Of a stretch of 64,000 nt of DNA, positions 19,381-50,347 are shown one piece after another. The notes beneath the pieces were generated by a model. The model was not told the DNA's origin. It ran no database searches and was given only the letters and a program-made list of their open reading frames with translations. The position numbers and the translations under genes were made by a program. How positions within the stretch are numbered: the first letter of the stretch is position 1; every line of letters starts with the position of its first letter. The stretch is from the NCBI GenBank assembly GCA_949300425.1, contig CASGED010000007.1, positions 5,471-69,470 of the forward strand, written 5' to 3'. Source of the DNA: an uncultured Bacteroides sp. Lineage in GTDB: Bacteria > Bacteroidota > Bacteroidia > Bacteroidales > Bacteroidaceae.

Positions 19381-19388
19381 CAAAAATA
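19381..19388 (-). promoter_or_regulatory. -7 promoter box for HTCS
   Basis: TATTTTTG on minus strand just upstream of start. Confidence 0.5.
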
Positions 19389-19446: not shown

Positions 19447-21849
19447 CTACGAATATTTCACTCGTTGCCTACGCCCCGCCACCAAAGCCAAGAACAAAAG
19501 CAAAACAAAAGCCACTATGATGGCGGACAATCCGGGAGGCGTTCCGTCGCTACCATAAGCATGCAGACCTGACAAATAATAGTTGACTCCAAAATAAGTC
19601 ATCAAAACGGACGCAAGTGCAAACACGGTCATCACACTGAACGCATAATCCGTGTCGAGCGGACGTATAAAACGGGCGTGGAGAACAAAGACATAGACCA
19701 CCATCGTGATAAGCGCCCATGTCTCTTTAGGATCCCAGCCCCAATAACGTCCCCAAGATTCATTGGCCCATACCGCACCCAAAAATATTCCGATAGTCAG
19801 CAAGAACAGCCCCACGAACAAAGACAGTTCATTTACAAGCCGCAAGCCATGTATTTGAGACTGTAACTTGCGGTTCTTGTCCGCCGCCATCAGACCTAAC
19901 GAAAGCCCGCCCAATAAAAAGCCCATGCCCAAAAAACCGTAACTTGCCGTTATGACAGCCACATGAATCATCAGCCAATAGGACTTGAGCACAGGAACCA
20001 AGGGAGTAATCTCCGGATCCATGAAATTAAGATTGGCCACGAACAGGATAATACCGGAGAAGAATGCGCCTAAAGCCACCGCAACAGAAGAGTGACGCAT
20101 AAAAAGGAGGCCTGCCAAAGTAGTAGCCCAAGCGACAAAAACCATCGACTCATACGCATTGGATAAAGGGGCACGCCCGGCAAGATACCAACGGATGCCA
20201 ATGCCAAACGTCTGAAGCAAAAACAATACAACGATGCTGGCCACCAAAACCAAGATTGTCGGACTCAACCATTTCTTACGATTCAACAAACCATATACGG
20301 AAAAACATAGCAACAATAAACCGACCATCATCCCGCCCATTGCCGTCCATAAGAAAAGACGAGCGTGATTATAAAACAATTCCCACGACACTTGCCTGTC
20401 TGTTAGCAACCCGGCCGTCGCTTTTTTTTGCTGATAGGTGTTCATCATATCGAGAATCTCGTTGGAGGTGGACCAATCGTGCGTATGCAACGCTTCATAC
20501 GATTCCGCCAAGTACCAAGGGAATATTTTGGACACAAACATGGAGTCCTTGCCGGAAAAAACGCTTAAATCATCTCCCGGTGAATACCACTTACCGGAGA
20601 TATCAGAAGGATGCGGAAAGATGGCCCACATTTTTCCCGCCTGCAAAGCATACAGAATGTTCAGTTTTTCATCCAACTTCAGCAAGTCCTTCTCCATGCG
20701 TGAACGCTCGGCCACCGGCCGCGAATAAGCACTATCAACCATTTCCGCCAAAACATATCGGCCTTCCGTGTCGAAAAAGTCATTAAAACGCAAGTATTTG
20801 TCTTTTGGTAATGACACGGCTTTCGTCAATTCCTCGTTGGACTGACGAATGAGGGCGACATTCGACCAATAACCCGGATTGATCAAAAAGCCCAAAATAA
20901 CTTGCTCGGAAGTCAAACCTTCATAAGTCTCCTTTCGGCAGAGCTTACGCAAAAGCTTGGACGCATAGGTATTGACCGGCTCAACACGTCCTGTCGGGCA
21001 CTGAATCTGTAGACGTCCCCACTTGTCAGCCTGCTCTTTCGGAACGGTATTCGCCTGCAGGAACTGTGTTTCATCCCCACTTGCAGCCATCATCCGCAAG
21101 GGCGCGAACAACAACAGGCACACGGCTGAGGCCCTGCCTAAATTCCGCACCAACCAACGGAAACGGGAACCTTTGTCAAGCATTACCCAACAGCAGCCTA
21201 CTAATAAAAGCAAATAACCCACATATGTGATTGCCGTACCCCAATTGTCATGATTGACCGACAATACCGTCCCCTGTTCATCCGGGTCATAAGAAGACTG
21301 ATACAACCGATAGCCTTGCTCGTACACAACCTTGTTCATATAAATATGTACCTGACGCGTTTCACGTTCTCCATGGATTAGGGTAAGCAAACTTTCGTAG
21401 GAAGAAGGGCTACGTGAACCGGGATAGCGCACCAACTTAAAATCGTCCAAACGGATGGAAAAAGGAAGTTGCTTAGTACCGTCAGTCTGCCTTAAGACGG
21501 AAGTGGTTTCGCCTTCACGGATATGGACGATTCCCTCAAATCCGAACAAGTGGGTAACTAACGCCCCCAACAAAATGACAATAAAAGCAGCATGAAGCAC
21601 CAAAGTCCCCCAACGGTGGCGTTGCCAAAGTTTTGTCCGGCAGGCCAACAGGACGAACTGGGAAACCATCAAAGCCTGGAGCAAAAAGAAAAAAGGATGA
21701 TGATATACCCACTCCTTAGCCACCTGGGTACCATAGTTTTTTTCCACAAAAGTGGCCAATGCCAACAGCAGGGCATAAACAGACAGCAACACCAACGTAC
21801 AACGCCAAGACTCAAACGCAGCCAGCACCATAAAGAAACACCTCTTCAT
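19447..21849 (-). CDS. ccsA: Cytochrome c synthase CcsBA fusion (System II; ResB-like + CcsA)
   Basis: ATFVE, LVLHAAFIVILLG, APLSNAYES, LVPVLKSYWLMIHV, WWD domain GAVWANESWGRYWGWDPKETW, GVNYYLSGLHAY. Confidence 0.93.
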   Translation of the reverse strand: MKRCFFMVLAAFESWRCTLVLLSVYALLLALATFVEKNYGTQVAKEWVYHHPFFFLLQALMVSQFVLLACRTKLWQRHRWGTLVLHAAFIVILLGALVTHLFGFEGIVHIREGETTSVLRQTDGTKQLPFSIRLDDFKLVRYPGSRSPSSYESLLTLIHGERETRQVHIYMNKVVYEQGYRLYQSSYDPDEQGTVLSVNHDNWGTAITYVGYLLLLVGCCWVMLDKGSRFRWLVRNLGRASAVCLLLFAPLRMMAASGDETQFLQANTVPKEQADKWGRLQIQCPTGRVEPVNTYASKLLRKLCRKETYEGLTSEQVILGFLINPGYWSNVALIRQSNEELTKAVSLPKDKYLRFNDFFDTEGRYVLAEMVDSAYSRPVAERSRMEKDLLKLDEKLNILYALQAGKMWAIFPHPSDISGKWYSPGDDLSVFSGKDSMFVSKIFPWYLAESYEALHTHDWSTSNEILDMMNTYQQKKATAGLLTDRQVSWELFYNHARLFLWTAMGGMMVGLLLLCFSVYGLLNRKKWLSPTILVLVASIVVLFLLQTFGIGIRWYLAGRAPLSNAYESMVFVAWATTLAGLLFMRHSSVAVALGAFFSGIILFVANLNFMDPEITPLVPVLKSYWLMIHVAVITASYGFLGMGFLLGGLSLGLMAADKNRKLQSQIHGLRLVNELSLFVGLFLLTIGIFLGAVWANESWGRYWGWDPKETWALITMVVYVFVLHARFIRPLDTDYAFSVMTVFALASVLMTYFGVNYYLSGLHAYGSDGTPPGLSAIIVAFVLLLFLALVAGRRQRVKYS

Positions 21850-21880
21850 ACAAGCCTATCCTTTATCACTTCATACTTAT

Positions 21881-22834
21881 TCAATCGTGTACGGAAGGCG
21901 ATGGGTTGGTATTCGCCTCGTACACTTTAAAGTCACCTAAGAACAAGGATTCATCTTTAATGCCATTGTCCGGATAATCTTTACGGCTGGCCATCCGGCG
22001 TCCAAAACTACGATAAATTCCGAACTTGCTGCGAATGTCCACAGCCCCCTCACGCCACATATCTATGTCGGAAAAGGATCTCTCGACAAGAACCTCCCCA
22101 TCGCTCACACGCTCCAACTTGATATAAAAATAGCCATTATGGGTGTAATGCATCACCGTTGTCGCCTGTATCCACTGACCTTCAAAATCCTGTAAAGGTA
22201 AACTGTCGACAATAATCCTTGACCAAGTGTCTTTCCTGTCTCCAGAATGAATTACTTGGAGCCAACGCTCAGAACCATCTGCATTGGCCCTTGGTGTAAT
22301 TGTAAGAATCGGCATTCCATTATTGCCTTCCTGCGCTTTCAGTTGATGGATATGCGTGAAACCAGTAGAAGGACGAAAGCCCGCGGGGATTTTAAACTTC
22401 CACTCCAGACGTTGCCACTCGTCCCAATTACCGTTCATCTGATGGTACCCTTTACGGGTACGGCTCTTCATCTCATTACGCTGACGATCACCATACTTCC
22501 CCCGGTCACCGTCAGTAGCATCAGGACCTGCATGATTCGTAAACTTAAACACATATTGTCCCAACGTTTTATCTTCTATCACCTCGCAATGAACCCCCTC
22601 GGCATGGTCGGCCTCTCCGGCTATATTCGGATGCTCCGAATAATCCCATCCCAATGACCTCATATATTTATTAATGTCTCTCCAATCTTTGCCCACCAAT
22701 GAAGCGTCTGCCTGCATAGAGGCTTGCAATACGTAGTCTTCCGGCTGCGGCATTTCAGAAACTTCCTCTCCACATGCTCCCATCAAAAAGCAACAGAGAG
22801 AAAAAGAACATATCATATAATAAAACTTTTTCAT
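21881..22834 (-). CDS. Lipoprotein, beta-jelly-roll polysaccharide lyase-like (heparin lyase I / PL7-like)
   Basis: Lipobox MGAC; RQRNEMK, FTHIHQLK, SKFGIYR resemble jelly-roll lyase RxE, Q/H and KxGxY motifs. Confidence 0.6.
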   Translation of the reverse strand: MKKFYYMICSFSLCCFLMGACGEEVSEMPQPEDYVLQASMQADASLVGKDWRDINKYMRSLGWDYSEHPNIAGEADHAEGVHCEVIEDKTLGQYVFKFTNHAGPDATDGDRGKYGDRQRNEMKSRTRKGYHQMNGNWDEWQRLEWKFKIPAGFRPSTGFTHIHQLKAQEGNNGMPILTITPRANADGSERWLQVIHSGDRKDTWSRIIVDSLPLQDFEGQWIQATTVMHYTHNGYFYIKLERVSDGEVLVERSFSDIDMWREGAVDIRSKFGIYRSFGRRMASRKDYPDNGIKDESLFLGDFKVYEANTNPSPSVHD

Positions 22835-22840
22835 CCCTTT

Positions 22841-23590
22841 TTAATTTATCATTACTTGCAAAGAACGTAAAAGCGCTCCCAAATCAGTCGGTGTGAGTTG
22901 CTGCGCAGAATCAGATAAAGCCACCTCCGGACAGTTATGCGACTCGACAAACAAACCGTCAAAGCCCAAAGATAAAGCCTTTTCACAAAGTGGAAACAAT
23001 AATCCTCGTTTACCTGCTATATGGCTAGGGTCGCAATAATAGGTCAAATCAGGGAAATAATGACGGAATAGTTCCGCCAACTCCCAAAGCGGTGCATTAC
23101 GATAAGGGGCACTATCTACCACACAAAACCCCCGATGTATCACACGCACATCTTGAATACCGGCATTCTGCAAACGCTCGACAGCCCCTATCCATAGCGC
23201 GATATCCGGACATATCGGATTCTTAATCCACACAGTTACACGGCTTCCCTTCAACGCTTCCGCCAATTCACTCATCATAAATGGATTGGCCGTTGTACGG
23301 GCACCAATCCATACCATATCAATTCCGCTTTTCAGCACAGCTTCTACATGCCGGGGCAAGGCGACTTCGGTCATCACCTTCAACCCCAACTCCCGCTGAA
23401 TCTCGGTCATCCAAGGCAACCCTTTTGCGCCCACCCCCTCAAAACTTCCCCAACGAGAGCGGGGTTTCCACAGGCCAGCCCGGAACATCTGCACGCCTAA
23501 CGCTTTCAGTCCCCAAGCCGTCTCCAGCATCTGAGAACGATTCTCCGCACTACACGGCCCGGCGACCAAACCTATCCTCTTTTTTTCCAT
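22841..23590 (-). CDS. 3-deoxy-7-phosphoheptulonate (DAHP) synthase, type I-beta, catalytic barrel only
   Basis: AGPCSAE, RAGLWKPRS, WIGART, IKNP, HRGF, DPSH, VESH..P..ALSD..QQL; 249 aa with no chorismate mutase domain. Confidence 0.88.
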   Translation of the reverse strand: MEKKRIGLVAGPCSAENRSQMLETAWGLKALGVQMFRAGLWKPRSRWGSFEGVGAKGLPWMTEIQRELGLKVMTEVALPRHVEAVLKSGIDMVWIGARTTANPFMMSELAEALKGSRVTVWIKNPICPDIALWIGAVERLQNAGIQDVRVIHRGFCVVDSAPYRNAPLWELAELFRHYFPDLTYYCDPSHIAGKRGLLFPLCEKALSLGFDGLFVESHNCPEVALSDSAQQLTPTDLGALLRSLQVMIN

Positions 23591-26500
23591 CAGTCTTCTA
23601 TAATAACACGGAAACCTACATTATAAACTTTCTGCCATGGCAAATAAGAACGACGATAATAGGCTGTACAATTCTTCGGATGATCGTTCCACGAACCACC
23701 ACGTACGACCTTCTCTGTTCCAGTTCCTTGTTTTTTCTCATCATACGGATAAGGAAGATAATCGGAACGAGTCCATTCAGCCACATTCCCCTGCATATCA
23801 TACAATCCGAAAGCATTAGCCTGATAAGTACCACCCGCCACTTGCAACATATTTCCGTCGTCTACACTATTTTCCTTGGGTTGGTATGTATAATATTTAT
23901 ACCACGAATCAGTCTCTTTCATTGGCTGAGGATTGACACCACGCACCGCCATTTTATTCAGTTGTTTATCGGCCATATTCTCAAATGAAGCAAAATCGCT
24001 ATTTAGAGTACCGAACCAAAAAGCGTCTTCACTACCTGCCCGACAAGCCCATTCCCACTGAACTTCCGTAGGCAACGTAACCTTGCGTCCCGTCCTTTCA
24101 CTCAACTTCTGACAGAAAGCCATCGCCTCTTCCCAACTGACACGAATAGCCGGTTGCTCCGGATTATTGGCCGGATAACCTTGATGTACATGGTCTTTCC
24201 ACAACTGACGGTTGAAACGGCTATCGTGGTTAGGGAAAATCGCACGAAATTGTTCATTACTTACCTCCATCTCTGCCATCCAAAAGCTTTTCTTCAAAGT
24301 CTGCTTATTGGCCGGTGAATAGTCGGAATAATTGCGGTTGCTCCCCATTACAAAAGAACCAGCCGGAATACGGACAAAATTCATCCGGATGCCCGGAGCC
24401 AATTCAATACTCATTTTCGTTTCACCTTCCTTGGAGACCATAGTCTGCGCCGTAGCCTTGTCAAAAGGCCAGTTCTTTACTTTTACATCTTTAGTCTTAG
24501 GTTCTACAGTCTTAGGCTTGACAGGATCCGGCTTTGGTTGCGCCTTCAAATAATCGGCATACGAACGTATTTCTGCCTGCCAGTCCACCCCGGCACCATT
24601 GGCATATTTGTTGGTCAACTCTATACGGCGGCTGATTTGCTCTACTCCCTTAAAGATATTCGCCTTAAACTTACCATGATACGGAGCGTTGAAATCAATC
24701 CAATTATACAAAGTTTTCCATTCTTTATCGGTCAACTTCACACCATAATGCCCCGTCTTCAACAATTTTACCAACGGACTGACCGAAGCATGATATTCGT
24801 AAGGTTCCAGCACTTCAACTTCAGCCTCAGGACCTTGGCGATATACATAAGGGTGCAGATTCAGATAACTTTTTCCAAAACCGGAAAATTCGTCAATACT
24901 TCCTCCTCTAAAATCCGCCAATCCGTTAGAACCATCGTGACAAGAAACACATGCCCGATCCAAAATAGGTTGCATTTCCAGTTCAAAAGTAAATGAACGC
25001 TGCCCTCCTTCCGGTTTAACTAACTCATGTGGAGCTATCGTCGAAGCAATTACACGCTTAGGAATCGGCAACTGATTTTGGTCTTCATGACAACCGACAC
25101 ACGAAACCGTTTCTCCCGGCATACCAGTCAACCAACTACGCATCCATTGTACCGCACGTCCTTCCGAATCCAACGGTTGCAACGAAATCGGCGTATTGGC
25201 AGGAATCTTAAATATGGCGGACCCATCTTCCTCTACCGGAACGACACCTAACAAACGCTTAATGTCCCAACCGCTTTGAACACCTTGCGCCCAATGGTCG
25301 GAAGGAGTTTTATTGTAAGCATACTCATACGCTAATACGCGAAATGCTTTCACGGTTCCACGCGGTACGCCTTGAAGACCTTCTCCTTCATAAATATCTT
25401 GTATAAAAACGGTGGCTTCTTTGCTGCCCGGCACAATCTTATCCGCTATGACAGGAGGAGTCTGGGTCTTACGGACCGGTATCGGGCAAATCAAACCTTC
25501 CCCTTCAAATTCTGCAATCAAAGTAAGATTGTCAAAAACGTCCACTAAATAAATACCCCACAAAGAATTTTCACTCAATTTGGCAGTAACTAAGAAATAC
25601 TTGTCCGTTAACGGATATGGTTTGATGAATTGAGGCCATACACCATCCACTAAACGGTCTTTCACAATAGGTTCAATCTTCCGGTCACGGAAAGGCATTT
25701 CTTGTAACATGCCATCCACACCCTTTCGGTTCTTCGAAGGATCGAACAATATTAAACGCCCTGAACGAGCCACTCCATGATGCCCCGAAATAATGCCCAC
25801 AAACTTTGATGTCTCTCCAGGTAACGGCTTGGCATCAAATGTACTGTTGGGAAAATACGTGCCGCTACCATATAACGATTTTTGCTCTGTACCATCCGGA
25901 TTCATGTGCATGACTATACGGGAAAAATAGTGTGTCAAGTCCGTATATTCCCAACGTGTGTACATGATTCTACCATTATGTAACACTGTAGGTCCCCAAT
26001 TGGCATCTTGATCAAATGTCAAACGGCGCAATGAACCATCTTTCGGATCATAAAGACACATATTTCCCACTTCGTCATTACCGTTCACACAAGGCACCCC
26101 ATTATAACCGATGTTTGAAACCGCTATAATTTTTCCGGAAGGCAAATAGGTCGCATCGAAAAACTCCAAGTCTTTCTCTGGTATATTTATCAATTTCCGC
26201 AATCCTGTACCATCTGTTTTTACCTCAAAAACTTGCCAACGTCCATCTGTATCTACCATTGAAAACATGATATGCTCTCCGTCCCAATGCAATTTCAAAT
26301 CTGGTACCGAGGAACCATTAGTTGGTTTAAATATCGTCCGCGATTTTAATTCGCCACGAAGATTGGACAACTCCGCAATTTCCGCGTTAAACCCTCTACG
26401 TGACGCTGATGTCTGATTGGACCAATTGTTGTTTTGAGTTCCCAACGCACGAGGATTGACTTGCCTGGCCGTAGTCCCTATCTTATAACGACCAACGATG

Positions 26501-27576
26501 ATTTTGTCTATATCCAACGCCGGATTGGCAAGCAATATTTCCTTCTTCAACCTTAAAGCCTTGTTCGCATCGGCTATCGCCTTCTCTTCATTTTTATAAA
26601 TCCCGGAAAAGCCCGTCTCAAAAAGCTGTTTCAATTCTGCCAACTTAAGTTGCATCGCAGTCTTGTCAAAGCCAGCATCTTGAGCCATATCATTATAAGC
26701 TTCTTCAATAGCTCTCATATTCAACCAACTTAAGGATTCTTGCAACTCACAAACCTTCATCGCCTGTTGAGCCAAATCCAAGAAAGCGATAACTTTCTCA
26801 TCCAATGCGCCGTTCTTGTCAATCCGGGCTATTTGATTCGTAAAATAAGCCTTGTCATTCAGCAAAGACACGACAGAAGTAGCGATGTGTTTCTCTATCG
26901 ATGCGTCATGAGTTGTCACAATAGCCTTCATGTCGCCCCCCGCAAAAGGTAAAAAACGAGCAGACTCAACCGGGAATTTTTTCGTTAATTCATCAGCCTT
27001 CTCTTTACCGGTAATTCCTTGTAAGATGAAAATGACGGTTCCCGCTGAGGAACGATTCTCCAAACCAATCTCCGCCTCAAAGCGGGTATATTTTTTATCT
27101 AACGGCACAACAATCTGCGCATTCGCATTGGCTAATATGGTACGGTCGTATTTTTTTCCTTTCATGGTGACCACTTGGCCTTTAGCGTTCTCATTAAAGC
27201 GCAGCCGTCCGCTTCCACTCTTTTTAAAAGTATCTTTTAAGTCGTTCAACCAAACTGACGAACCATCTGCTGCAATCAATTTGGCATTAGCCCATACAGC
27301 TTGGTCATCACTATTCCCATCTACCGTACCCCATGTATATAATACAATCTCATCTAAGCCTGTCACATCCGCCGAAAAAGGCGTAGCCGCAGTCTTGGCC
27401 TTAATAACTTTAGAAACTACCGGCAAACACGTTTCTTTCAACTCTTGATAGGCCTGTTCCTTAGCAGTTGCTATACTTTCTGCCCATGTTTCCAAACGGT
27501 TGTCCGCGACTTTCTGCTGCGCTTTGGCCATCATCGCAATAACAACACATGCCGACATTAACACCAACTTCTTCAT
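23590..27576 (-). CDS. Exported HzsA-related dihaem-c protein: NPCBM + beta-propeller + HZS-alpha middle domain + 2 CxxCH + FGE-sulfatase-like domain
   Basis: Signal peptide; GKKYDR...LDKKYTRFEAEIGL (NPCBM); GRIMYTRWEY; PVEEDGSAIFKIPANTPISLQPLDSEGRAVQWMRSW...SCVGCH; ACVSCH; LPTEVQWEWACRAG, NAFGLYDMQGNVAEW, RGGSW, VGFRV. Confidence 0.85.
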   Translation of the reverse strand: MKKLVLMSACVVIAMMAKAQQKVADNRLETWAESIATAKEQAYQELKETCLPVVSKVIKAKTAATPFSADVTGLDEIVLYTWGTVDGNSDDQAVWANAKLIAADGSSVWLNDLKDTFKKSGSGRLRFNENAKGQVVTMKGKKYDRTILANANAQIVVPLDKKYTRFEAEIGLENRSSAGTVIFILQGITGKEKADELTKKFPVESARFLPFAGGDMKAIVTTHDASIEKHIATSVVSLLNDKAYFTNQIARIDKNGALDEKVIAFLDLAQQAMKVCELQESLSWLNMRAIEEAYNDMAQDAGFDKTAMQLKLAELKQLFETGFSGIYKNEEKAIADANKALRLKKEILLANPALDIDKIIVGRYKIGTTARQVNPRALGTQNNNWSNQTSASRRGFNAEIAELSNLRGELKSRTIFKPTNGSSVPDLKLHWDGEHIMFSMVDTDGRWQVFEVKTDGTGLRKLINIPEKDLEFFDATYLPSGKIIAVSNIGYNGVPCVNGNDEVGNMCLYDPKDGSLRRLTFDQDANWGPTVLHNGRIMYTRWEYTDLTHYFSRIVMHMNPDGTEQKSLYGSGTYFPNSTFDAKPLPGETSKFVGIISGHHGVARSGRLILFDPSKNRKGVDGMLQEMPFRDRKIEPIVKDRLVDGVWPQFIKPYPLTDKYFLVTAKLSENSLWGIYLVDVFDNLTLIAEFEGEGLICPIPVRKTQTPPVIADKIVPGSKEATVFIQDIYEGEGLQGVPRGTVKAFRVLAYEYAYNKTPSDHWAQGVQSGWDIKRLLGVVPVEEDGSAIFKIPANTPISLQPLDSEGRAVQWMRSWLTGMPGETVSCVGCHEDQNQLPIPKRVIASTIAPHELVKPEGGQRSFTFELEMQPILDRACVSCHDGSNGLADFRGGSIDEFSGFGKSYLNLHPYVYRQGPEAEVEVLEPYEYHASVSPLVKLLKTGHYGVKLTDKEWKTLYNWIDFNAPYHGKFKANIFKGVEQISRRIELTNKYANGAGVDWQAEIRSYADYLKAQPKPDPVKPKTVEPKTKDVKVKNWPFDKATAQTMVSKEGETKMSIELAPGIRMNFVRIPAGSFVMGSNRNYSDYSPANKQTLKKSFWMAEMEVSNEQFRAIFPNHDSRFNRQLWKDHVHQGYPANNPEQPAIRVSWEEAMAFCQKLSERTGRKVTLPTEVQWEWACRAGSEDAFWFGTLNSDFASFENMADKQLNKMAVRGVNPQPMKETDSWYKYYTYQPKENSVDDGNMLQVAGGTYQANAFGLYDMQGNVAEWTRSDYLPYPYDEKKQGTGTEKVVRGGSWNDHPKNCTAYYRRSYLPWQKVYNVGFRVIIED

Positions 27577-27583
27577 AAATCCT

Positions 27584-28495
27584 TTATTTAAAACCTAACT
27601 CCAACCATTTCTGTTTATCTATATAATAAGCCGCGGACACTTTGCCGATATTCTGTTTATCCCGCAAAGACCAGACAACTTTTCCTTCACCATCCAATTC
27701 TATTAATTGAGGCTCGTCAACAACCGCTCCCTTAGTATGACCACCCCAATTACATACCAACAAGTTCCTATTCTGTAACTCTAACACTTGAGCAACAAAC
27801 CAAAACGCCGCTCCCTTCACATCGTTACTCGTTACTTTTCTCACCATTTCTCCAGTCATTCCGTCCATTATCAAATAATAATGGTCGTCTCCACAAGGCA
27901 GTAACCAATTGCCATCAGACAATTCTAACGAAGAAAATACTTTTCCCTCTACCTCATATTCTTTTACTAATACACCATCACGACTGATTTCCATTACCTT
28001 CCGCGCAGACATCAATGGCACTAAATAATTTCCGTTCCTAAGCTGAAAGACTTGCCGAAACTGACTATGAGGCTTTGCGATACCTAAATCAAATGCCATT
28101 CGGTGTGTCTCCTTTCCATTCTTATCCACCTCTATAAACAAAGCGGGATTCCCACAAATCCCCAACAAAGCTCCTCCATCTGATAATAAAGTAGCCGATT
28201 GTAGTTCCTGAGCCTCTGACACTGCATGCTCCCAAACCACCTCGTGATTCCAATTTACGACCTTTGCCCCTTTTTTATAAGAATAAAGTATATTGCCTCC
28301 GGCGGTCAAGGCTACCGTGTTACATTCCTCCCCTTTGTCCAACGCATGCCGCCATTCCACCTTTCCTGTTTGTTTGTCAACAAGCGAAATTACAGGATTG
28401 CCGGAACCGGCAACCAAGATTTTATCTTGAGCTACCAGTTCCTGCACCCCCCACAAAAAAATAACTATAAAACAAATCCAAAATCTCTGCATCAT
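27584..28495 (-). CDS. Exported beta-propeller protein of unknown function
   Basis: Signal peptide; repeated L.NGN.LV and E.D..GKV.W blade motifs. Confidence 0.6.
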   Translation of the reverse strand: MMQRFWICFIVIFLWGVQELVAQDKILVAGSGNPVISLVDKQTGKVEWRHALDKGEECNTVALTAGGNILYSYKKGAKVVNWNHEVVWEHAVSEAQELQSATLLSDGGALLGICGNPALFIEVDKNGKETHRMAFDLGIAKPHSQFRQVFQLRNGNYLVPLMSARKVMEISRDGVLVKEYEVEGKVFSSLELSDGNWLLPCGDDHYYLIMDGMTGEMVRKVTSNDVKGAAFWFVAQVLELQNRNLLVCNWGGHTKGAVVDEPQLIELDGEGKVVWSLRDKQNIGKVSAAYYIDKQKWLELGFK

Positions 28496-28507
28496 TACCT
28501 CTTTAAC

Positions 28508-29383
28508 TTATCTACTCTTCAATTCGTTGAACAGTTCAAAAGCCTGATTGGGAGACATATTGTCATGAACAACAGCCTTCACTGCTTGCAGCATGGCTAC
28601 AGGAGCTTCAGACTGGAACACATTACGTCCCATATCCACACCGGCAGCACCGTCATTAACAGCTTTATAACAAAGTTCAAGAGCTTCCAATTCAGGCAAT
28701 TTTTTACCGCCGGCAATCACGACAGGAACCGGACAAGCCGCCGCAACTTTTTCGAAGCCTTCACAATAATAAGTCTTTACGATATTGGCGCCATTCTCTG
28801 CCGCGATACGTGAAGCCAAACCGAAATAGCGGGCATCGCGTACCATATCTTTGCCTACCGCCGTCACACCCATCACCGGAATGCCATAGCGAGTACCTTT
28901 GTCCACCGCCTTATACAGGTTTGCCACCGTCTTCGCCTCGTGTTCCGCTTCACCGATGGCCAACATCACAGCCATTGCCGAGACATTCAAACGAACCGCA
29001 TCCTCAACGTCTATCAATACATTATCATTCAAGGACGTCAATAATGAAGTTCCTGCGTCCGAACGAAGGCAAATGGGTTTATTAGTCATCGGAGGGACAA
29101 CTGAACGAAGAATTCCCCGTGTACACATCAAACAATCCGCATACTCTATCAACGGTAGAATGTTTAAATCAATACGTTCCAAACCGGAAGTCGGTCCCAT
29201 GATAAATCCGTGGTCGAAAGCTAACATAACGGTCCGTCCTGTTTTCATATTGAATATACGGGACAAACGGTCTTTCATCCCCCATGGAAGGTTCTCCGCC
29301 CCTTTCACAGGAAATTGTTGAGACGCAACATTTACGCCTATTCCATAATTATGTCCTTCTTTTAATCCATCCAAATCTGCCAT
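28508..29383 (-). CDS. lsrF: LsrF-type 3-hydroxy-5-phosphonooxypentane-2,4-dione thiolase / class I aldolase
   Basis: MADLD start, [60 protein letters not shown]. Confidence 0.9.
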
Positions 29384-29438
29384 ATTTTTCCTCTTTTTAT
29401 TTTAATCTACTATTTATACATTATTAAACTGCCCAAGA

Positions 29439-30053
29439 TTACAAAACTTGGGCAAAAGACTGAAACATACAAGCCCATGAAGTGGCGCCAGAATCAGCAT
29501 AACCAACTGAACGTTCACCATAATTACGCGCACGTCCGAAATTGGCCCGCATCTGTTTCGTAGCTTCCGCACCTTTCAAAGCTGCCTCTGCCGCGGCTTG
29601 GAACATCACTTTAATGTCATCACCTTCCACAGCCTGCATTGCCGCGATGGCCGGAATTAAAGCATCCATCATAGTTTTATCTCCCGGCTTTGCCTTTGTC
29701 TGCTTTTCCACACCGGCCAAACCACCCGCAAACATTTTTTTCACCGCAGCCGCATTCAATTCTGTCCCTTCCGCCTGATCGCTCATGCCTAAGAAAAGAC
29801 CTCCAAGCAATGTGCTGGTTGAGCCACTGATTTCCAACATGACATTAAAACCCATGTCGTTCAGCATTGACTTGAAATCCGTCCCCTTTTCGGCGCTTTG
29901 GACAATGACCGACATGGCCTGCGTTATAGCCGTGCCATGGTCGCCATCGCCTAAGACCGCATCCAACTGTGAAAATTCATCAGCACGCTCCGTAATGTTT
30001 TTCAAAGCATTACGGAGCATCCTCTTAAAATCGTCTATTGTTAATTTATCCAT
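29439..30053 (-). CDS. dhaL: Dihydroxyacetone kinase-like subunit L (DAK2)
   Basis: LDAVLGDGDHG, AKPGDKTMMDAL, GRARNYGERSVG, DSGA. Confidence 0.88.
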   Translation of the reverse strand: MDKLTIDDFKRMLRNALKNITERADEFSQLDAVLGDGDHGTAITQAMSVIVQSAEKGTDFKSMLNDMGFNVMLEISGSTSTLLGGLFLGMSDQAEGTELNAAAVKKMFAGGLAGVEKQTKAKPGDKTMMDALIPAIAAMQAVEGDDIKVMFQAAAEAALKGAEATKQMRANFGRARNYGERSVGYADSGATSWACMFQSFAQVL

Positions 30054-30055
30054 GA

Positions 30056-31063
30056 TTACCGCCCGATTGTAGTCCAATAAGGAGCGTTTGACATCTTATT
30101 ATTCAAATAATCCACATGGTCTTCATCCAACAAAGCCAATATCATCTGGAATCCGGCCTGTTCTTGAACCGTGAGCAGTTCACCTATACGGCTCGAAGCA
30201 ACCTCAATACCCGCATTCTCCAACACCTGATGAGCTTTCCGATATACGATATTCATCTCCATATGAGTGGTAGCTCCCACCCCATTAATAATCAGCAAAG
30301 CTTTGTCACCGGCCTTCGGCTGCAACTTTTTCATTAACAGGCCAATCATTTCAGAAGCCGTCTCATCGGCAGAAACCAGTTTCTTGCGTCCGCCACCGCC
30401 TTCGCCATGTTGTCCCATGCCAATCTCGATTTCGCCATCCGGCAATTCCGAAATCGTCATTCCGTTTTGAGGATGAACACAAGATTTCATTGCGACAGCC
30501 AATGTGGCCAGTCTTTGGTTAAAACGTTCTCCTATCTCAATTATTTCGTCCAGGCTTTTCCCTTCTTCCGCCGCCGCACCTACAATCTTAATCAGAGGAA
30601 CACACCCGGCCAATCCACGACGGTCATCATCCGGAGCGTCCAATCCCGCACTGATATCATCGTGCGTCAGAATAGTCTTCACTTTTACGCCCACACGACC
30701 GGCCAGCTGGCAGGCCATATTGGCACTCATTACATCTCCGGAATGATTCAGCACAATCAACAATATACCTGCGTCCCGCTTAAACATCTGCAAAGCCTGA
30801 AATACACGCTGAGCGCCCGGTGCCGCAAATATGTCGCCTACGACAGAACAATCCAACATGCCTTCGCCTACAAAGCCGCTCAACGCCGGCTCATGACCAG
30901 AACCGCCCAAGGTAATAACAGCCACTTTATCATCAGACTTGGCATGAGCACGGACAATGATATTTTCACCTCCTATGGCCACTTTATCGCTATAAGCCAT
31001 CGTGTATCCCTCCAGCAATTCCGCTGTAAGATTATTGGGGTCGTTTATAAATTTATTTATCAT
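30056..31063 (-). CDS. dhaK: Dihydroxyacetone kinase-like subunit K (DAK1)
   Basis: GGSGHEPA..GFVGEGMLD, GDIFAAP, RRGLAG, GMGQHGEGG. Confidence 0.88.
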   Translation of the reverse strand: MINKFINDPNNLTAELLEGYTMAYSDKVAIGGENIIVRAHAKSDDKVAVITLGGSGHEPALSGFVGEGMLDCSVVGDIFAAPGAQRVFQALQMFKRDAGILLIVLNHSGDVMSANMACQLAGRVGVKVKTILTHDDISAGLDAPDDDRRGLAGCVPLIKIVGAAAEEGKSLDEIIEIGERFNQRLATLAVAMKSCVHPQNGMTISELPDGEIEIGMGQHGEGGGGRKKLVSADETASEMIGLLMKKLQPKAGDKALLIINGVGATTHMEMNIVYRKAHQVLENAGIEVASSRIGELLTVQEQAGFQMILALLDEDHVDYLNNKMSNAPYWTTIGR

Positions 31064-31084
31064 AATTATAGTAGTTTTATAATG

Positions 31085-31402
31085 TTATTTACTAAATTGC
31101 ATCAATTCCAAAGCAATTCCTTCTTCTTCCACAAAAGCTATAGTAAGTTGCTCATTCACGACAGTTTTTGGCAAAAGCACCTTAGCGCCCTCCAACTCTT
31201 TGTCCAAATCATCTACCTCATAAGCGATATGCGCCAATTGTTGAATTAGTGCAGGCATCCAACTGTCCGCATCAAAACGTAAAAACTCAATCCGGTTCGG
31301 ACTTGTTGCATAGTCTGTCAAAAAGACTTTCATCCCTTCATTGTAAACCTCACCGGGAACCGGCGCCGTTACAGGAATTCCAATATGATTAATCTTTCTC
31401 AT
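31085..31402 (-). CDS. Small VOC/glyoxalase-fold protein
   Basis: INHIGIP, IEFL, HIAYEVDDLD, LELMQ (H/E/H/E metal ligand pattern). Confidence 0.7.
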   Translation of the reverse strand: MRKINHIGIPVTAPVPGEVYNEGMKVFLTDYATSPNRIEFLRFDADSWMPALIQQLAHIAYEVDDLDKELEGAKVLLPKTVVNEQLTIAFVEEEGIALELMQFSK

Positions 31403-31422
31403 GTTATTAAACAGGTTTAAAC

Positions 31423-31464
31423 GTTGATCGGAAGAAAGAGTTTAGGGCCTTCTATCCGACCAAC
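31423..31464. other. Imperfect intra-operon hairpin
   Basis: gttgatcggaagaa ... ttctatccgaccaac. Confidence 0.45.
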
Positions 31465-31486
31465 CGACATTCAAACAATATAAGTA

Positions 31487-32164
31487 TTAAAGAGCAGCCT
31501 TATCATTAGTGAAGCGCAAGCCGTCATTGTCATGATAACAGGCCCATTCCTCTACAATGGCACCTTCTGGTCCGGCCATCATAAAATGGAACGATTCCAA
31601 TTCCTTGAGGCGCAAGACATCCCCTACTTTTTGAATAACAAAATTCTTGCTTTTAATGGGGCCGTGAGTTGCGGGAATCTCCGGTGCATTGGGCGTTTCA
31701 TCTCCTATCACTGAAAAATTATAAACCCATCCATGGTTTACCATCCACGATTCATGCTTGGCGGGGAACTTGGTCTTCACATGAGCGTGCTCCGGAATCA
31801 TCTGTCCCGGCAACAAATAAATATTATGGGCGAAATACCCGTATTCGGGATCGTTAATCCAAAATATACCTCCCATACCTACATGCTCAAAATCGCCCAA
31901 ACCGAAATCCGTAAACCAAATGTCTTTCTCCATCAAAGGAGTAAAAGGCACTCCATAAAAATCAAACATGTCCAAGAAAGCCTTTTTAGCGGCTTCTTGG
32001 TCAAACTTACCATCTTTGTAGAAATCTGCGTTCGTGTACTTCTTTTCGTACGTAGTCTTTTCTTTCGTTGTCATAGTGCTTTCCTCTTTTTTAGTTGCTG
32101 ACGTACAGGAAACGATACCCATACAGCCAATTAAAACAATCATTAATGTTACTAATTTCTTCAT
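31487..32164 (-). CDS. Lipoprotein cupin of the D-lyxose/D-mannose isomerase family
   Basis: Lipobox IVSC; TDFGLGDF..G, LLPGQMIPEHAH, AKHES, HFMMAGPEGAIVEE. Confidence 0.75.
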   Translation of the reverse strand: MKKLVTLMIVLIGCMGIVSCTSATKKEESTMTTKEKTTYEKKYTNADFYKDGKFDQEAAKKAFLDMFDFYGVPFTPLMEKDIWFTDFGLGDFEHVGMGGIFWINDPEYGYFAHNIYLLPGQMIPEHAHVKTKFPAKHESWMVNHGWVYNFSVIGDETPNAPEIPATHGPIKSKNFVIQKVGDVLRLKELESFHFMMAGPEGAIVEEWACYHDNDGLRFTNDKAAL

Positions 32165-32183
32165 CTCACTTTCTATTTTAGGG

Positions 32184-33344
32184 TTAATAATATACACTTT
32201 TCTTTAATGAAGCGATTCCTTCAATCTCCACCAACAGTTCGCGCCGGCAAATGTCTGTAAACAAGTAAGAGACCTGCAAATCGGGGTAACGGCCCTCCAC
32301 GACTTCTTTTACCGCTTTCCAATCCTGACCGGGCTTTATATAGACGCGCAATCCGTTCAACTCCACATTCCCTGCCGGAACACCGGCACGTCCCAGGTTC
32401 TCCATAGACACCAAGTATTCAATATTCTCCAACGTAGCCAACGTCTGGCCGGCCACATCTATTCCCTCCAGGCTTTGTTCGCCACGAATAGCGGCAGTAC
32501 CCGATATGAACACCAAACCTTGACTCTCATTACGCACCACTTTAGCCCGCTCAAACTTTGGCGTTGTCCGGAGGCGGTTTAGTGTCTCGCCTAACAAGAC
32601 ATCCTGGGAATAGGCATGAGCCGCTATCTGCAAGGGATTGTCAACGCCTGCCACACACACCGTCCCGACTTCCGTTTTCAGGACATCCGCATCTACCACA
32701 ATCCCTCCACGCCATGCCCCGATGCCTGTCGCCGCCGGATAACCATTTTCCCATTCCGCCTGTTCATAGAACGCAGAACGTGCGTCATTAAAATCCTGAT
32801 AATGCTGATGCCCGTTGGCGTCATAGTCCGTAATTCCTTCGATGTAATTCCATTGACGGACTATATCGCCACCCGCCATTTGTTCATGATTCAGCACTTG
32901 ACCGACATGGGCAAAGATTGCGTCAGCCTGTTCTCGGAAACACTGAGAAAGAATGTCTCCCTGCATTCCGCCCAGGAAAAGCCATTTATAATTTTCACCC
33001 TTCGCCACGATGTATGAAACGCCCGCCCAGGTAAGATACTCCATTTCATCAGCCGACTCTGCCAATTCGTGCACTTCCATAATCAATCCACCCGCGCAAG
33101 GAGGCTGCGCCACATAACTCACCAAAGGCATCTCCTCTTTAAAACGAGCCTTGACCATCGTTCGGAGACAATCACATTGGGACAGATACTTCTCGTTGTC
33201 TTCCGGCATGCCGAAAAAGACAAGACGAATCGGAGCATTTTCCTTACGATACTGACCCAACAGGCCTGCAACCATCTCCGGAAAAGAAGCCTCTCCAACC
33301 TCATAAAAACGATGTTTCAACAGGGGAATATCTCTAACTTGCAT
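32184..33344 (-). CDS. FkbO/Hyg5-type chorismatase-like protein (Rid/YjgF-fold repeats)
   Basis: VRQWNYI, YQDFNDAR, YPAATGIG, DNPLQ.AAHAYS, PKFERAK, FISGTAAIRGE, DICRRELLVEIEG. Confidence 0.75.
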   Translation of the reverse strand: MQVRDIPLLKHRFYEVGEASFPEMVAGLLGQYRKENAPIRLVFFGMPEDNEKYLSQCDCLRTMVKARFKEEMPLVSYVAQPPCAGGLIMEVHELAESADEMEYLTWAGVSYIVAKGENYKWLFLGGMQGDILSQCFREQADAIFAHVGQVLNHEQMAGGDIVRQWNYIEGITDYDANGHQHYQDFNDARSAFYEQAEWENGYPAATGIGAWRGGIVVDADVLKTEVGTVCVAGVDNPLQIAAHAYSQDVLLGETLNRLRTTPKFERAKVVRNESQGLVFISGTAAIRGEQSLEGIDVAGQTLATLENIEYLVSMENLGRAGVPAGNVELNGLRVYIKPGQDWKAVKEVVEGRYPDLQVSYLFTDICRRELLVEIEGIASLKKSVYY

Positions 33345-33363
33345 ATTTACAATCTCTTTATAA

Positions 33364-35172
33364 TTAAAGTGAATTTACATACTCAGCCAATTCTTCAGCT
33401 TCTTTCTTCGAGATTTTCTTCTCGATTCCATGCTTGTACACCGTAAACACCTCTTCCATCGTAGCCGCCCGGCCATCGAATAAATAAGGAGCCGTACGCC
33501 ATACTTCGCGCAAGGTCGGGGTATCCCAACCGTTCTCAAACTCGATGTCCTCTCCTATCCGATACATCTTCAAGTCTGTATAATAAGGTCCCGAATGACA
33601 CTTGTCGCATTGGAATTTCTCAAAGACTTTCCTTCCTCGCTTGGCTTTCTCGGACAATTCGCCGTTCACCAAATAAGGGCTGGGAACCGGCTTCAACGAC
33701 ATCAGGTATTCGTCCACACAAGTGGCTTTTTCTTCCGGCAAGTCAATGAACTGAATATATTTATAACCCGTACGCACCGCCACGTAGGACGTAGGACGTA
33801 TGCCAGAAATCATAGCCGGAGGAGTGACGAGTGAGAACAGCAGACTTTTGCAATTCTTAGAATTACCGATGCCGTCGTTCATCAAGTCCCAGTTCATCCC
33901 ATCCATGCGCCCGTCGCCAGGATGACAACCGTTGCAGGATTGCCAATTCTGGAAGCAATAAGACGCGTCATTAAAATATTTCTCACCTTTATTGATGCGG
34001 CTTTCCACTCTGTTCTTTACCATTTCCACAAACTGCACGTCCAATGTATTCAAATCTACGACATTCAACGTATCTGAGAAATAAGTAGGTATCACAGCTG
34101 TATTCCCCTTCAACATGAATTCACGAGGTCCGTTACCAACCAGCGGGACACGCTTACGGAGACCATACAAAAAGCGTAAATCATAAGCTAAAGTACTCTT
34201 AGAGGAATAAGCCTCGAACTTCTTGACGAACTCCGGATAATTTATCACGCTGATGTCATGGGTGCCGGAATGCGAAACGACCACCTTGTCCGCCGTGCAC
34301 TTCACATCCCAAATACCGGCCGCGCCACGTTCCGGCTCATCCAACAAGACGGCGCCTTCGAACGACAAAGTGGCAACATTGACAACGCTCATCGCACTCG
34401 TATTCATCCATCCTTGCTGCAACTGGGAAGTCGGTACCTGGAAACGGCCCAAATTGTGAGTAACCAGCAGATAACGTCCGTCCGGAGAGAGACACATTCC
34501 CCTCAGAGCGTTACTGCCATTAGCAAGTTGTATGTCTTTTACCTTTTGAAAACTTTCCACGTCTATGACGGACACGCAAGCAGCAACCGTGTCTATATCC
34601 GCACGTTGCTGCGGCAGATAGTTGGCTACAAACAGCAACTTGCCGTCAGGAGAAAGTACAATGGACTTAGGTTCGCGCAAGACCTTTACCGTCCGCGTCT
34701 CGTTCTTGCGTTCTCTATCCACTTCCGACACCGTTCCCGCAAACTGGTTGCACACATACAATCGGCCCGATTGGGCATCAACCAACGGAGCACATGCTCC
34801 GGAAGCCGTGGGAATAAAATCCTGTACGGAAGGTTGCGACAGGGACAATAAGTAAACTCCGTTTTTCAGTTCGCCCGCCACGGTTGTTACGACTTGATCG
34901 CCATCGACCGCTACTCCCGTCGGCACCTCGTCCAACGCCCATTCTTGCAAACGCTCTTTATAATCCGGAGCATAAAGAGTCACCTTACGAATCCCTTTCT
35001 GGGAAACAATCATCCCGTCTTTGCAAGGAGCTATGTCAGTAATAAAAAGAGGTGTGCCCTCCGGTTGCTCCGAAGGCTGAGTTGCCGTAAATGCGCACCA
35101 CAGGCAAAACAACATCACCATCGGTACCGCCACCTTCATTTTTGTTCTTGTCCGAAAACTTTTATTTTTCAT
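33364..35172 (-). CDS. Exported YVTN beta-propeller + dihaem cytochrome c peroxidase/MauG-like fusion
   Basis: N-terminal signal; LYVCNQFAGTVS, LSPDGKLLFVAN; SCNGCH and CDKCH; TPTLREVWRTAPYLFDG. Confidence 0.85.
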   Translation of the reverse strand: MKNKSFRTRTKMKVAVPMVMLFCLWCAFTATQPSEQPEGTPLFITDIAPCKDGMIVSQKGIRKVTLYAPDYKERLQEWALDEVPTGVAVDGDQVVTTVAGELKNGVYLLSLSQPSVQDFIPTASGACAPLVDAQSGRLYVCNQFAGTVSEVDRERKNETRTVKVLREPKSIVLSPDGKLLFVANYLPQQRADIDTVAACVSVIDVESFQKVKDIQLANGSNALRGMCLSPDGRYLLVTHNLGRFQVPTSQLQQGWMNTSAMSVVNVATLSFEGAVLLDEPERGAAGIWDVKCTADKVVVSHSGTHDISVINYPEFVKKFEAYSSKSTLAYDLRFLYGLRKRVPLVGNGPREFMLKGNTAVIPTYFSDTLNVVDLNTLDVQFVEMVKNRVESRINKGEKYFNDASYCFQNWQSCNGCHPGDGRMDGMNWDLMNDGIGNSKNCKSLLFSLVTPPAMISGIRPTSYVAVRTGYKYIQFIDLPEEKATCVDEYLMSLKPVPSPYLVNGELSEKAKRGRKVFEKFQCDKCHSGPYYTDLKMYRIGEDIEFENGWDTPTLREVWRTAPYLFDGRAATMEEVFTVYKHGIEKKISKKEAEELAEYVNSL

Positions 35173-35226: not shown

Positions 35227-35385
35227 CAAAAATAGGTTCTATTGCTTTATCTCTATATCAAAAACGTCTTAAAAACTTGAGATATTGTCCTATCTCCATA
35301 TATTTCTCCCATGCTTCATATTCTCATCAACAGGATGCTTCAAATAACCTATTATAAAAAACGTCTCAAAAGCTTATAATATTGT
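35227..35385 (-). promoter_or_regulatory. Promoter of the heme/rare-sugar operon with duplicated 29-bp upstream site
   Basis: -7 TATTTTTG (35227-35234, minus strand); aaaaacgtcttaaaaacttgagatattgt (35260) and aaaaacgtctcaaaagcttataatattgt (35357), 24/29 identical. Confidence 0.6.
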
Positions 35386-35650
35386 ATCAAATCCTATTAG
35401 AAAGAGGTTGAAACTGAAGAATGGACGCTTGTGACACATCGTTCGCCTACATGTTTTTCAAATCTCCGACCTGCCTATAAAAATTCTGGTTCATCCGACA
35501 AATGCATAGGTACAGGTAGCGGAAAGTCTTCCCGCTTACGGGGAAAGCTTCTGATTACCATGTAAGCATTGAAGAATATTATTTTATCTATGCGACAACA
35601 AAGATTGCATACAGAAGAATACTATATCTTATTGTCTCCGTTTTAAAGCC

Positions 35651-36048: not shown

Positions 36049-36097
36049 TTTAATGTTAATCGCCGTCCCTTTAAATGGGACGGCGATTAACATTAAA
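36049..36097. repeat. Perfect 21-bp inverted repeat just downstream of the CAZyme operon (probable terminator or mRNA-stabilising hairpin)
   Basis: tttaatgttaatcgccgtccc-tttaaat-gggacggcgattaacattaaa. Confidence 0.8.
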
Positions 36098-40314: not shown

Positions 40315-40329
40315 AACCAATACTACTTT

Positions 40330-42486: not shown

Positions 42487-42516
42487 ATCATTCTATCTAA
42501 TTTTCATTTTATACAC

Positions 42517-44463: not shown

Positions 44464-44488
44464 AATCTATTCTATTTAAATAAAAACA

Positions 44489-45868: not shown

Positions 45869-45886
45869 GGCAATCACTCATTTACA

Positions 45887-50121: not shown

Positions 50122-50139
50122 GACACAAGATTTTTTCCA

Positions 50140-50147
50140 CAAAGATA
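50140..50147 (-). promoter_or_regulatory. -7 promoter box for the CAZyme operon
   Basis: TATCTTTG on minus strand about 19 nt upstream of ATG 50121. Confidence 0.55.
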
Positions 50148-50347
50148 GAAAAGCATATTAAATGGCTTGTTTTCTTTTTTCAACAGGCCGCTTTTTGAGA
50201 TAATATTTCAAGCAAAAAATACATTTTTGAAAGCGTCCTTACGATTGCCATGAAAAGTCCGCACCCATAAGAACGAAGAGTTTGTGAAACACTGAACGAA
50301 AAAAGTTGTACCTTTACGGCGTGATAACGTTAAAACTGTGACGAATT

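Follow-up and report, generated by a model that had tools for sequence, protein, structure and literature searches.

A conserved, uncharacterised Bacteroidales operon with hydrazine synthase-like heme proteins and an LsrF-type thiolase

Introduction

What is the biological function of an operon in which relatives of hydrazine synthase (HZS) stand beside sugar enzymes and a chorismatase? The operon consists of 12 minus-strand genes, g1 to g12 (Table 1), and lies in a window of 64,000 nucleotides from the genome of an uncultured Bacteroides sp. (GCA_949300425.1, contig CASGED010000007.1, positions 5,471 to 69,470). The sections of Hagglund et al. 2025 (PMC12758564) considered here treat the origin of HZS as an open question and its non-anammox homologues as proteins without known function. 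A sequence-only reading of the window had interpreted the 12 genes and an adjacent hybrid two-component system (HTCS) as one glycan-induced unit, in which a heme-c complex of HZS architecture acts on a sugar. We report that the operon is a real, conserved and uncharacterised system that is built like HZS, ends like the Lsr pathway of enterobacteria and belongs to neither. No publication on this operon was found in listings and abstract openings of non-subscription literature.

Results

A conserved core of nine genes

Which genes of the operon belong together? A scan with g9, the HZS alpha-like gene, gave 330 confirmed stretches, of which the 79 best loci were evaluated. They come from Bacteroides, Parabacteroides, Tannerellaceae, Odoribacter, Dysgonomonas, Rikenellaceae and Prolixibacteraceae, and 46 of them had both 10-kb flanks. 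The beta-gamma-like gene g1 is present in 39 of these 46. Within the 39 loci, the cupin gene (g3) is always found, the VOC, dhaK, dhaL and lsrF genes (g4 to g7) recur in 38 each, the chorismatase gene (g2) in 37 and ccsBA (g12) in 36. The propeller gene g8 occurs in 26, the DAHP synthase gene (g10) in 12 and the lyase-like gene (g11) in one, while an IclR gene is found in 28 and a histidine-kinase match of any type in 14. The core gene order is shuffled in several ways among loci. The remaining seven loci contain lone alpha genes, three of which follow an HTCS-SusC-SusD arrangement. Nine genes thus form the conserved core, and the DAHP synthase and lyase-like genes, which had been counted as members of the system, are lineage extras. 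The actual unit comprises nine or ten genes with IclR, not 12 genes with an HTCS.

An evenly drawn second sample of 300 Bacteroidales genomes includes 22 with g1 relatives, which reach at least 50% identity in 14. The regions around these 14 close relatives, some on contigs that end early, contain the cupin, VOC and dhaK genes in 13 cases, the chorismatase gene in 13 and IclR in nine; the DAHP synthase, lyase and HTCS genes were seen in none of them. LsrF is encoded in 15 of the 300 genomes, of which 14 also have the beta-gamma gene and one holds a broken 45% copy. The alpha gene occurs in 17 genomes, each of which also has beta-gamma, and alpha genes number one to three per genome. The sugar arm and the heme pair also occur together on high-GC environmental contigs (L186 and L195), which are among the three of 35 distant loci with this combination. 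In a phylum-wide sample, full-length g1 relatives appear in just two of 300 other genomes. The proposed association of the heme genes with an isomerase-kinase-LsrF arm is therefore borne out, both by the 36 to 39 of 39 loci and by the distribution of LsrF. In two related genomes (L112 and L113), the alpha gene is broken at the same position into two open reading frames (ORFs) of 708 and about 635 aa.

The heme pair g1 and g9

How closely do the heme proteins resemble HZS? The model of the g9 core (residues 373-1042, pLDDT 89) matches HZS alpha best (E 8e-24, TM 0.63), followed by TolB (2e-8). The g1 propeller superimposes on HZS beta with a Z of 39.5 (327 residues, rmsd 2.6), compared with a Z of 32.6 for the next match; the best PDB matches of g1 are HZS beta and gamma, the gamma domain being recognised by sequence only (E 5e-16). 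As in the HZS structure (5C2V), g9 combines a six-bladed propeller, a middle domain, two CxxCH motifs and the distal His of heme alpha-II (His943), and g1 joins a seven-bladed propeller to a dihaem domain with a bis-His second heme; a contact between alpha and beta-gamma is predicted. Both proteins carry two CxxCH motifs and signal-like N-termini. His943 of g9 and His581 of g1 are invariant or nearly so and, given that heme ligands were assigned from alignments, are the putative second ligands of electron-transfer hemes. A complex predicted for g9 373-972 and g1 223-602 scores 0.76, versus 0.00 for the best of three controls, although this score may reflect likeness to the solved HZS. Contact agreement between runs is at least 91% and the partner pLDDT is at least 86; the mark for such scores is reached by 116 of 157 solved pairs and two of 215 mismatched pairs. 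The HZS architecture first read from the sequence is thus upheld by fold and sequence, and the predicted complex is consistent with it. The dihaem fold of g1 is also that of dihaem peroxidases and MauG, from which g1 differs in the loss of the inter-heme Trp, the His/His second heme and the fused propeller.

Unlike HZS, the operon proteins lack equivalents of Tyr591, Cys165, Asp168 and His144. Tyr591, which according to the part of the source considered (10.1101/2023.01.22.525020) serves as a ligand in HZS and is located four residues past the His of heme alpha-I, corresponds to Asn834 in g9, and a Tyr within six residues occurs in one of 54 homologues. In g1, an alignment of moderate quality places Ile473, a gap or Gln474, and Ile455 at HZS gamma Cys165, Asp168 and His144, respectively. 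Ile455 also occupies the position of the inter-heme Trp; the operon subfamily has Ile here, and Trp is confined to L129-135. The NCBIfam HZS equivalog scores, 83 and 56 bits, lie under the cut-offs of 1250 and 800. Anammox had been disclaimed from the outset, and rightly so in view of these scores and the missing catalytic residues. In further contrast to HZS, g9 carries an N-terminal NPCBM and a C-terminal FGE-sulfatase-like domain, both overlooked at first, and the genes sit with sugar enzymes and polysaccharide utilization loci (PULs). Cys496, His599 and His600 of the alpha propeller are invariant or nearly so and may shape the catalytic heme site; the propeller did not align to Cys303, which with His587 forms the HZS Zn site. 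The sole paralogue of the 54 with a Tyr four residues past the heme His, at the Tyr591 position, is encoded at L019:13554-16841. PD40-heme proteins were considered as alpha homologues and treated as unrelated (HH-align probability 30%, a single blade).

In the parts covered, Hagglund et al. 2025 (PMC12758564) describe HZS-like clades I-IV, in which alpha-like and fused beta-gamma-like genes without catalytic residues are co-located, and their supplementary tree includes Bacteroides and Parabacteroides sequences. The operon pair resembles these homologues in being paired and without catalytic residues, and differs from clades I-III in the missing inter-heme Trp. The terms 'sugar' and 'chorism' are absent from the main text of that study, and the parts covered give no function. 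L130-L135 show the clade III gene order and encode FG-GAP proteins, a short alpha, a three-heme beta-gamma and a single-domain Rid protein with chorismatase residues, together with DAHP synthase and two periplasmic binding proteins; sugar genes are absent from them.

The alpha protein appears to be the substrate-specific subunit and beta-gamma a shared electron-transfer unit, because alpha has carbohydrate-binding domains, occurs as one to three paralogues per genome and has copies inside PULs. Subfamilies with differing arms fit this division. The L125 subfamily is accompanied by an FGGY kinase, a Zn-dehydrogenase and DeoC with GH43 and GH2. A different catabolic arm is joined to this heme module at L129 (170-19999), where SusD, two alpha genes, beta-gamma, a chorismatase-like gene, acetate kinase, AllH/FdrA/AllG and an Fe-dehydrogenase are encoded. 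A set of 34 long homologues, chosen among the top 150 of a profile search, includes five in which alpha is fused to beta-gamma and two in which a g8-type propeller is fused to it; in B. intestinalis (L220:13277-15274), a g8-type propeller is fused to GH105.

The sugar arm

What substrate does the sugar arm point to? The g7 protein scores 466 bits against the LsrF equivalog cut-off of 297 and aligns end to end with E. coli LsrF (E 5e-110), and its catalytic Asp/Lys/Asp motifs are identical to those of 3gkf in the alignment. Because g7 passes the cut-off and aligns over its full length, its substrate is likely a phospho-2,4-diketone, and the last step to dihydroxyacetone phosphate (DHAP) and acetyl-CoA is likely the same as in Lsr catabolism of autoinducer-2 (AI-2). 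DhaK-family kinases phosphorylate C1 of ketoses, and lyxose-isomerase cupins interconvert aldoses and ketoses. The kinase subunit g5 retains both catalytic His residues with different pocket residues. The cupin g3 has D-lyxose isomerase as its best match and retains the metal ligands (7nzo, E 1e-9); it carries a lipobox, and 58 of 70 g3 homologues have a lipobox-like N-terminus. Traced back over phosphorylation of a ketose and isomerisation of an aldose to that ketose, the LsrF substrate would derive from a 4-keto-aldose, most simply 5-deoxy-pentos-4-ulose.

Unlike the Lsr pathway, the operon has DhaKL, cupin and VOC proteins in place of LsrK and LsrG and couples them to exported heme proteins. 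LsrACDB and LsrR are absent at the locus, and none of LsrK, LsrG, LsrACDB and LsrR is among the recurring neighbours of the loci. An LsrF copy at L249:179-12951 lies beside a RuBisCO-like protein, transketolase, an FGGY kinase and dehydrogenases, and the heme pair of that genome is elsewhere.

The chorismate branch

Why does a chorismatase-like protein accompany heme proteins and sugar enzymes? Like the Hyg5-type chorismatases, which are 3-hydroxybenzoate synthases, g2 retains the catalytic Glu, both Arg, the Tyr and the Gly/Gly/Cys signature. The Hyg5 residues Y147, R154, G173, C327 and E334 are kept in 27 of 27 aligned g2-type rows, and R220 and G240 in 24 of 27; Glu334, Gly173, Gly240 and Cys327 correspond to E373, G207, G282 and C366 of g2. 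The catalytic and product-determining roles of these residues follow the sections of PMC7170507 considered here. The g2 protein differs from Hyg5 in its overall identity (about 30%), in its TIGR04444 score (146 versus a cut-off of 325) and in its location outside a polyketide cluster, next to c-heme proteins and CcsBA. The XanB2 chorismatase also makes 4-hydroxybenzoate from chorismate. The DAHP synthase copy g10 is 51% identical to the housekeeping enzyme, whose chorismate mutase tail it lacks. In the distant HZS-like subfamily L130-135, a single-domain g2 homologue is found in six of six loci and a DAHP synthase of a different subtype in four of six.

The proposed chorismate branch holds in that g2 keeps the decisive residues and is tied to the heme part, but g2 is not specific to this system. 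Among 48 chosen genomes, none of 20 negatives carries the chorismatase, whereas 31 of the 300 sampled genomes have g2-like genes and 14 of these 31 lack beta-gamma, so exclusivity to the heme pair was rejected. We inspected 21 g2-like loci outside the operon, drawn from 11 of those 14 genomes and from second or weaker copies. A c-heme or maturation gene lies within 6 kb of the g2-like gene in 15 of the 21: a CxxCH TolB-like lipoprotein with DUF6057 in eight, an imelysin/di-haem oxidoreductase/porin set in five (two with abutting ccsBA), alpha with ccsBA in one and ccsBA in one. Since its neighbours elsewhere are mostly c-heme proteins or CcsBA, g2 follows c-type hemes and not the sugar arm, and the chorismatase likely serves the hemes rather than the sugar. 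We infer that the hemes need g2-derived hydroxybenzoate, either as a ligand or as a mediator of redox transfer; the ligand version is attractive because Tyr591 is missing, though it is a guess.

Three other neighbourhoods of chorismatase-like genes recur. In L237, L240, L242-245, L247 and L248, DUF6057 and a TolB-like lipoprotein with an invariant CxxCH inside its propeller adjoin a Hyg5-type chorismatase, and this pair is a second uncharacterised heme-c propeller system. In L250-L254, an iron-uptake-type cluster comprises a porin, imelysin, a di-haem oxidoreductase, a porin, a small CxxCH protein, a chorismatase-like gene and often ccsBA. DUF362 proteins and polyferredoxins recur beside chorismatase-like genes, beside GH105 and in the Bacteroides cluster (L238, L239 and L215).

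Promoter, repeat site and glycan context

How is the operon controlled? The TATTTTTG box assigned earlier as its promoter lies at 35234-35227, with a conserved direct repeat before it. The motif by itself is common (17 minus-strand matches in 15000-36200), and since a second TATTTTTG lies at 19388, ahead of the HTCS gene, the HTCS may have its own promoter. The repeat, with 21-nt spacing, sits 58 nt ahead of the -7 box in six of six relatives. A matrix trained on these six relatives, with the window excluded, finds 11 sites in the genome, versus zero to one for each of eight shuffled matrices. Ten sites are listed: two before g1, three in the C47 locus, one before a GH105 gene 77% identical to the GH105 of the cluster, one before a SusC/D pair and three unexplained. 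The site is thus common to the operon and to SusC/D loci on C47 and C15. Direct repeats of this kind bind HTCS regulators, and different HTCSs may share similar sites; the repeat is likely an HTCS binding site. The regulatory block upstream of g1 (35253-35392) is duplicated in this genome, with a good -7 box in the downstream copy only. A further repeat site (50193-50235, plus strand, 25.7 bits) is flanked by the PL6 gene and by a gene for a 2-hydroxyacid dehydrogenase (at 50348) that may belong to the regulon.

In B. cellulosilyticus, B. intestinalis and a related metagenome-assembled genome, the operon is embedded in about 60 kb of carbohydrate-active enzyme (CAZyme) genes. It is preceded by PL6, beta-helix proteins, two DUF362 proteins, two GH97, GH31, GH36, a six-hairpin protein and an HTCS, and followed by GH105, a second HTCS, GH88-like, GH2, PL38, GH105, PL8 and a GH95-like gene. 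The downstream HTCS of these relatives opens the GH88/PL38/PL8 block that follows, and another HTCS, missing in the genome of the window, stands directly upstream of g1. The latter genome keeps pieces elsewhere: C47 (L227:2475-18661) encodes SusC, SusD, a second alpha, a 591-aa unknown protein, GH88, GH2 and PL38. The second alpha is 61% identical to g9 and lacks NPCBM, and its locus holds three g1-type repeat sites. SusC/D genes are absent from the operon itself.

The glycan link drawn from the sequence therefore stands in Bacteroides, where the operon shares its repeat site with lyase/GH88/GH105 loci, and is not supported beyond this genus. In 19 operon-positive and 20 operon-negative genomes, no tested glycan family (PL38, PF13204, GH127) tracked the operon outside Bacteroides. 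Alginate or PL38 as a general link is unsupported there (5/19 versus 4/20 genomes). Aceric acid of rhamnogalacturonan-II was rejected as the substrate, counting both the apiosidase PF13204 (10/19 versus 4/20) and the GH127 of the rhamnogalacturonan-II locus (1/19 versus 2/20), which we take to be that gene from its synteny with B. thetaiotaomicron.

Operon layout

The 12 ORFs occupy 35172 to 19447 in the placement and order first described, with intergenic gaps from g1 to g12 of 19, 19, 84, 21, 2, 55, 12, 7, -1, 6 and 31 nt; the HTCS gene starts 87 nt past g12. This spacing suggests co-transcription of the 12 genes. The assembled RNA runs X1 and X3 contain the full 20 kb as one contig, indistinguishable from DNA, and the runs X8 and X9 contain short pieces across operon genes. 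Terminator-like sites show no excess (16 found versus 16.0 expected). The GC content of the operon stretch is 0.42-0.47, versus 0.52-0.57 in housekeeping DNA at 10-14 kb. The initial family assignments agree with profile and structure matches except for g4, whose match is weak, and g11, which has no Pfam, NCBIfam or PDB match. A close g11 homologue resembles PF14099 polysaccharide lyases in language-model features, and a 68% paralogue of g11 lies in a SusC/D locus on contig C86 of the same genome.

Table 1. Features of the operon and its surroundings (positions in the window)
Feature	Position	Strand	Description
TATTTTTG	35227..35234	-	Bacteroides -7 promoter box; same spacing to repeat in 6/6 relatives
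Direct-repeat site, upstream copy	35350..35392	-	two TGAGAC-like half-sites 21 nt apart; 37.3 bits, best genome-wide match
Second direct-repeat site, downstream copy	35253..35295	-	19.0 bits; at conserved distance before -7 box
g1	33364..35172	-	exported 7-bladed propeller and dihaem fusion (HZS beta-gamma-like); CxxCH at 413 and 522, distal His581
g2	32184..33344	-	cytoplasmic Hyg5-type chorismatase-like protein; best matches Hyg5/FkbO
g3	31487..32164	-	lipoprotein cupin, D-lyxose/D-mannose isomerase family
g4	31085..31402	-	single-domain VOC protein; weak match (Pfam E 0.0075)
g5	30056..31063	-	DhaK-family (Dak1) substrate-binding kinase subunit, altered pocket residues
g6	29439..30053	-	DhaL (Dak2) nucleotide-binding subunit; dhaM absent from operon
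g7	28508..29383	-	LsrF thiolase orthologue
g8	27584..28495	-	exported Mal s 1-like propeller, accessory
g9	23590..27576	-	exported HZS alpha-like protein: NPCBM, 6-bladed propeller, HZS middle domain, CxxCH at 826 and 876, FGE-like domain
g10	22841..23590	-	DAHP synthase (DAHP_synth_1), accessory
g11	21881..22834	-	lipoprotein resembling PF14099 lyases; recent insertion, outside core
g12	19447..21849	-	fused CcsBA cytochrome c synthase
HTCS	15256..19359	-	Bacteroides lineage only; possibly regulator of wider regulon
Hairpin, 20 pairs	36050..36096	.	closes upstream CAZyme block
Upstream CAZyme block	36116..50142	-	PL6, two beta-helix proteins, GH97, GH31, GH36, six-hairpin protein; syntenic with operon in Bacteroides

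Discussion

What would such an operon do? We propose a catabolic route, to which we give about an even chance, that proceeds through heme oxidation of a glycan-derived sugar, isomerisation, phosphorylation and thiolysis. A periplasmic heme-c complex of g9 and g1, aided by g8, would oxidise the sugar to 5-deoxy-pentos-4-ulose or a close 4-keto-aldose. The exported cupin g3 would isomerise this product to a 2,4-diulose, DhaKL would phosphorylate it to 3-hydroxy-5-phosphooxypentane-2,4-dione, and LsrF would split the phospho-diketone with CoA into DHAP and acetyl-CoA. The VOC protein g4 may stand in for LsrG or an epimerase. CcsBA and the chorismatase would equip the hemes, with g2 making hydroxybenzoate from chorismate and g10 boosting this supply. 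A broader conjecture, speculative and unlikely to hold as a whole, is that HZS-type complexes were ancestrally carbohydrate-oxidising: heme-c glycan oxidoreductases with a swappable alpha, whose catalytic heme has hydroxybenzoate from chorismate as an outside phenolate ligand in the role of the Tyr591 of anammox HZS, the same chorismatase-made cofactor serving several unrelated periplasmic c-heme families of Bacteroidales.

Several observations weigh against the catabolic model. The lyase link is Bacteroides-specific, as the PL38 counts show, and the operon stands alone with IclR in most carriers. No known reaction was found that links the ordinary lyase products (DKI/DEH) to the LsrF substrate. 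The chorismatase is missing from two operon loci, and of the 21 chorismatase-anchored loci, six have no heme neighbour and one (L246) lies among sugar kinase/aldolase genes. Moreover, the counts overstate independence because the loci are kin and the samples partly overlap.

Could g2 belong to the sugar route after all? It may be a catabolic hydrolase of a sugar enol ether or pyruvate ketal, with DAHP synthase incidental. Such a cleavage would be the same acid chemistry as on chorismate, and the operon is surrounded in Bacteroides by many lyases and GH88/GH105, enzymes that act on alpha-carboxy enol ethers; the low frequency of DAHP synthase (12 of 39 loci) and the g2 homologue among sugar genes in L246 point the same way. 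However, g2 retains the product-determining Gly and Cys of Hyg5, c-heme or maturation genes of four kinds neighbour g2-type genes where a sugar arm is absent, and a second HZS-like subfamily couples a g2 homologue to a bona fide DAHP synthase. We consider a hydrolytic g2 unlikely.

The reaction of the heme complex may instead involve nitrogen, with an amino, N-acyl or N-oxidised sugar as substrate and perhaps with NO or hydroxylamine as in HZS; to this we also give a small chance. Oxidative C-N cleavage at C4 would yield the 4-keto-aldose directly, and HZS ancestry, the invariant Cys496 and His599/His600, which suggest a special metal or heme site, and oxamate carbamoyltransferase genes in one related locus (L129) are consistent with it. 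Against this stand the lost equivalents of the four HZS residues and the failure of aminotransferase, deacetylase or nitrite reductase genes to recur in the core.

Use of the cytoplasmic arm to scavenge AI-2 (4,5-dihydroxy-2,3-pentanedione, DPD) or dicarbonyls such as the norfuraneol hydrolysis product, with the cupin and VOC proteins in place of LsrG, DhaKL in place of LsrK and the heme pair sensing or detoxifying, is quite improbable. Although g7 and LsrF are closely orthologous along the entire protein and the free diketone is, by established chemistry, an isomer of DPD, the conserved set lacks LsrK, LsrG and LsrACDB, and glycan-binding domains and PUL-type regulation accompany it. Using AI-2 requires no heme, but LsrF is found with the heme pair in 14 of 15 genomes.

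We regard as very improbable a biosynthetic operon that makes an exported small molecule by joining DHAP, acyl-CoA and hydroxybenzoate and oxidising the product periplasmically. The combination of a chorismatase and a DAHP synthase freed from regulation is characteristic of natural-product clusters, and g7 and g10 are weakly similar to the BagB/BagF models, but the core has no CoA ligase, carrier protein or exporter, a solute symporter follows the operon in seven loci, and regulation is in common with degradative PULs. A true, anammox-type hydrazine synthase in Bacteroidales, suggested by HZS fold and subunit architecture, can be dismissed given the absent catalytic residues and the NCBIfam scores far under the cut-offs.

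Thus, oxidation of a glycan-derived sugar remains our preferred reading, and sugar oxidation by an HZS-like architecture is likely a use not described before. The operon places HZS homologues in culturable and tractable gut species, Bacteroides cellulosilyticus, B. intestinalis and Parabacteroides goldsteinii, and the adjoining enzymes with a known end reaction make the function of an HZS homologue directly testable. HZS_alpha matches in gut or rumen metagenomes should not be taken as anammox. If the proposed route is true, heme-c redox chemistry would become part of how gut anaerobes degrade glycans, and the presence of LsrF in Bacteroidales would be explained without recourse to quorum sensing. 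The route would also hint that c-type heme proteins have an aromatic requirement that has so far gone unrecognised.

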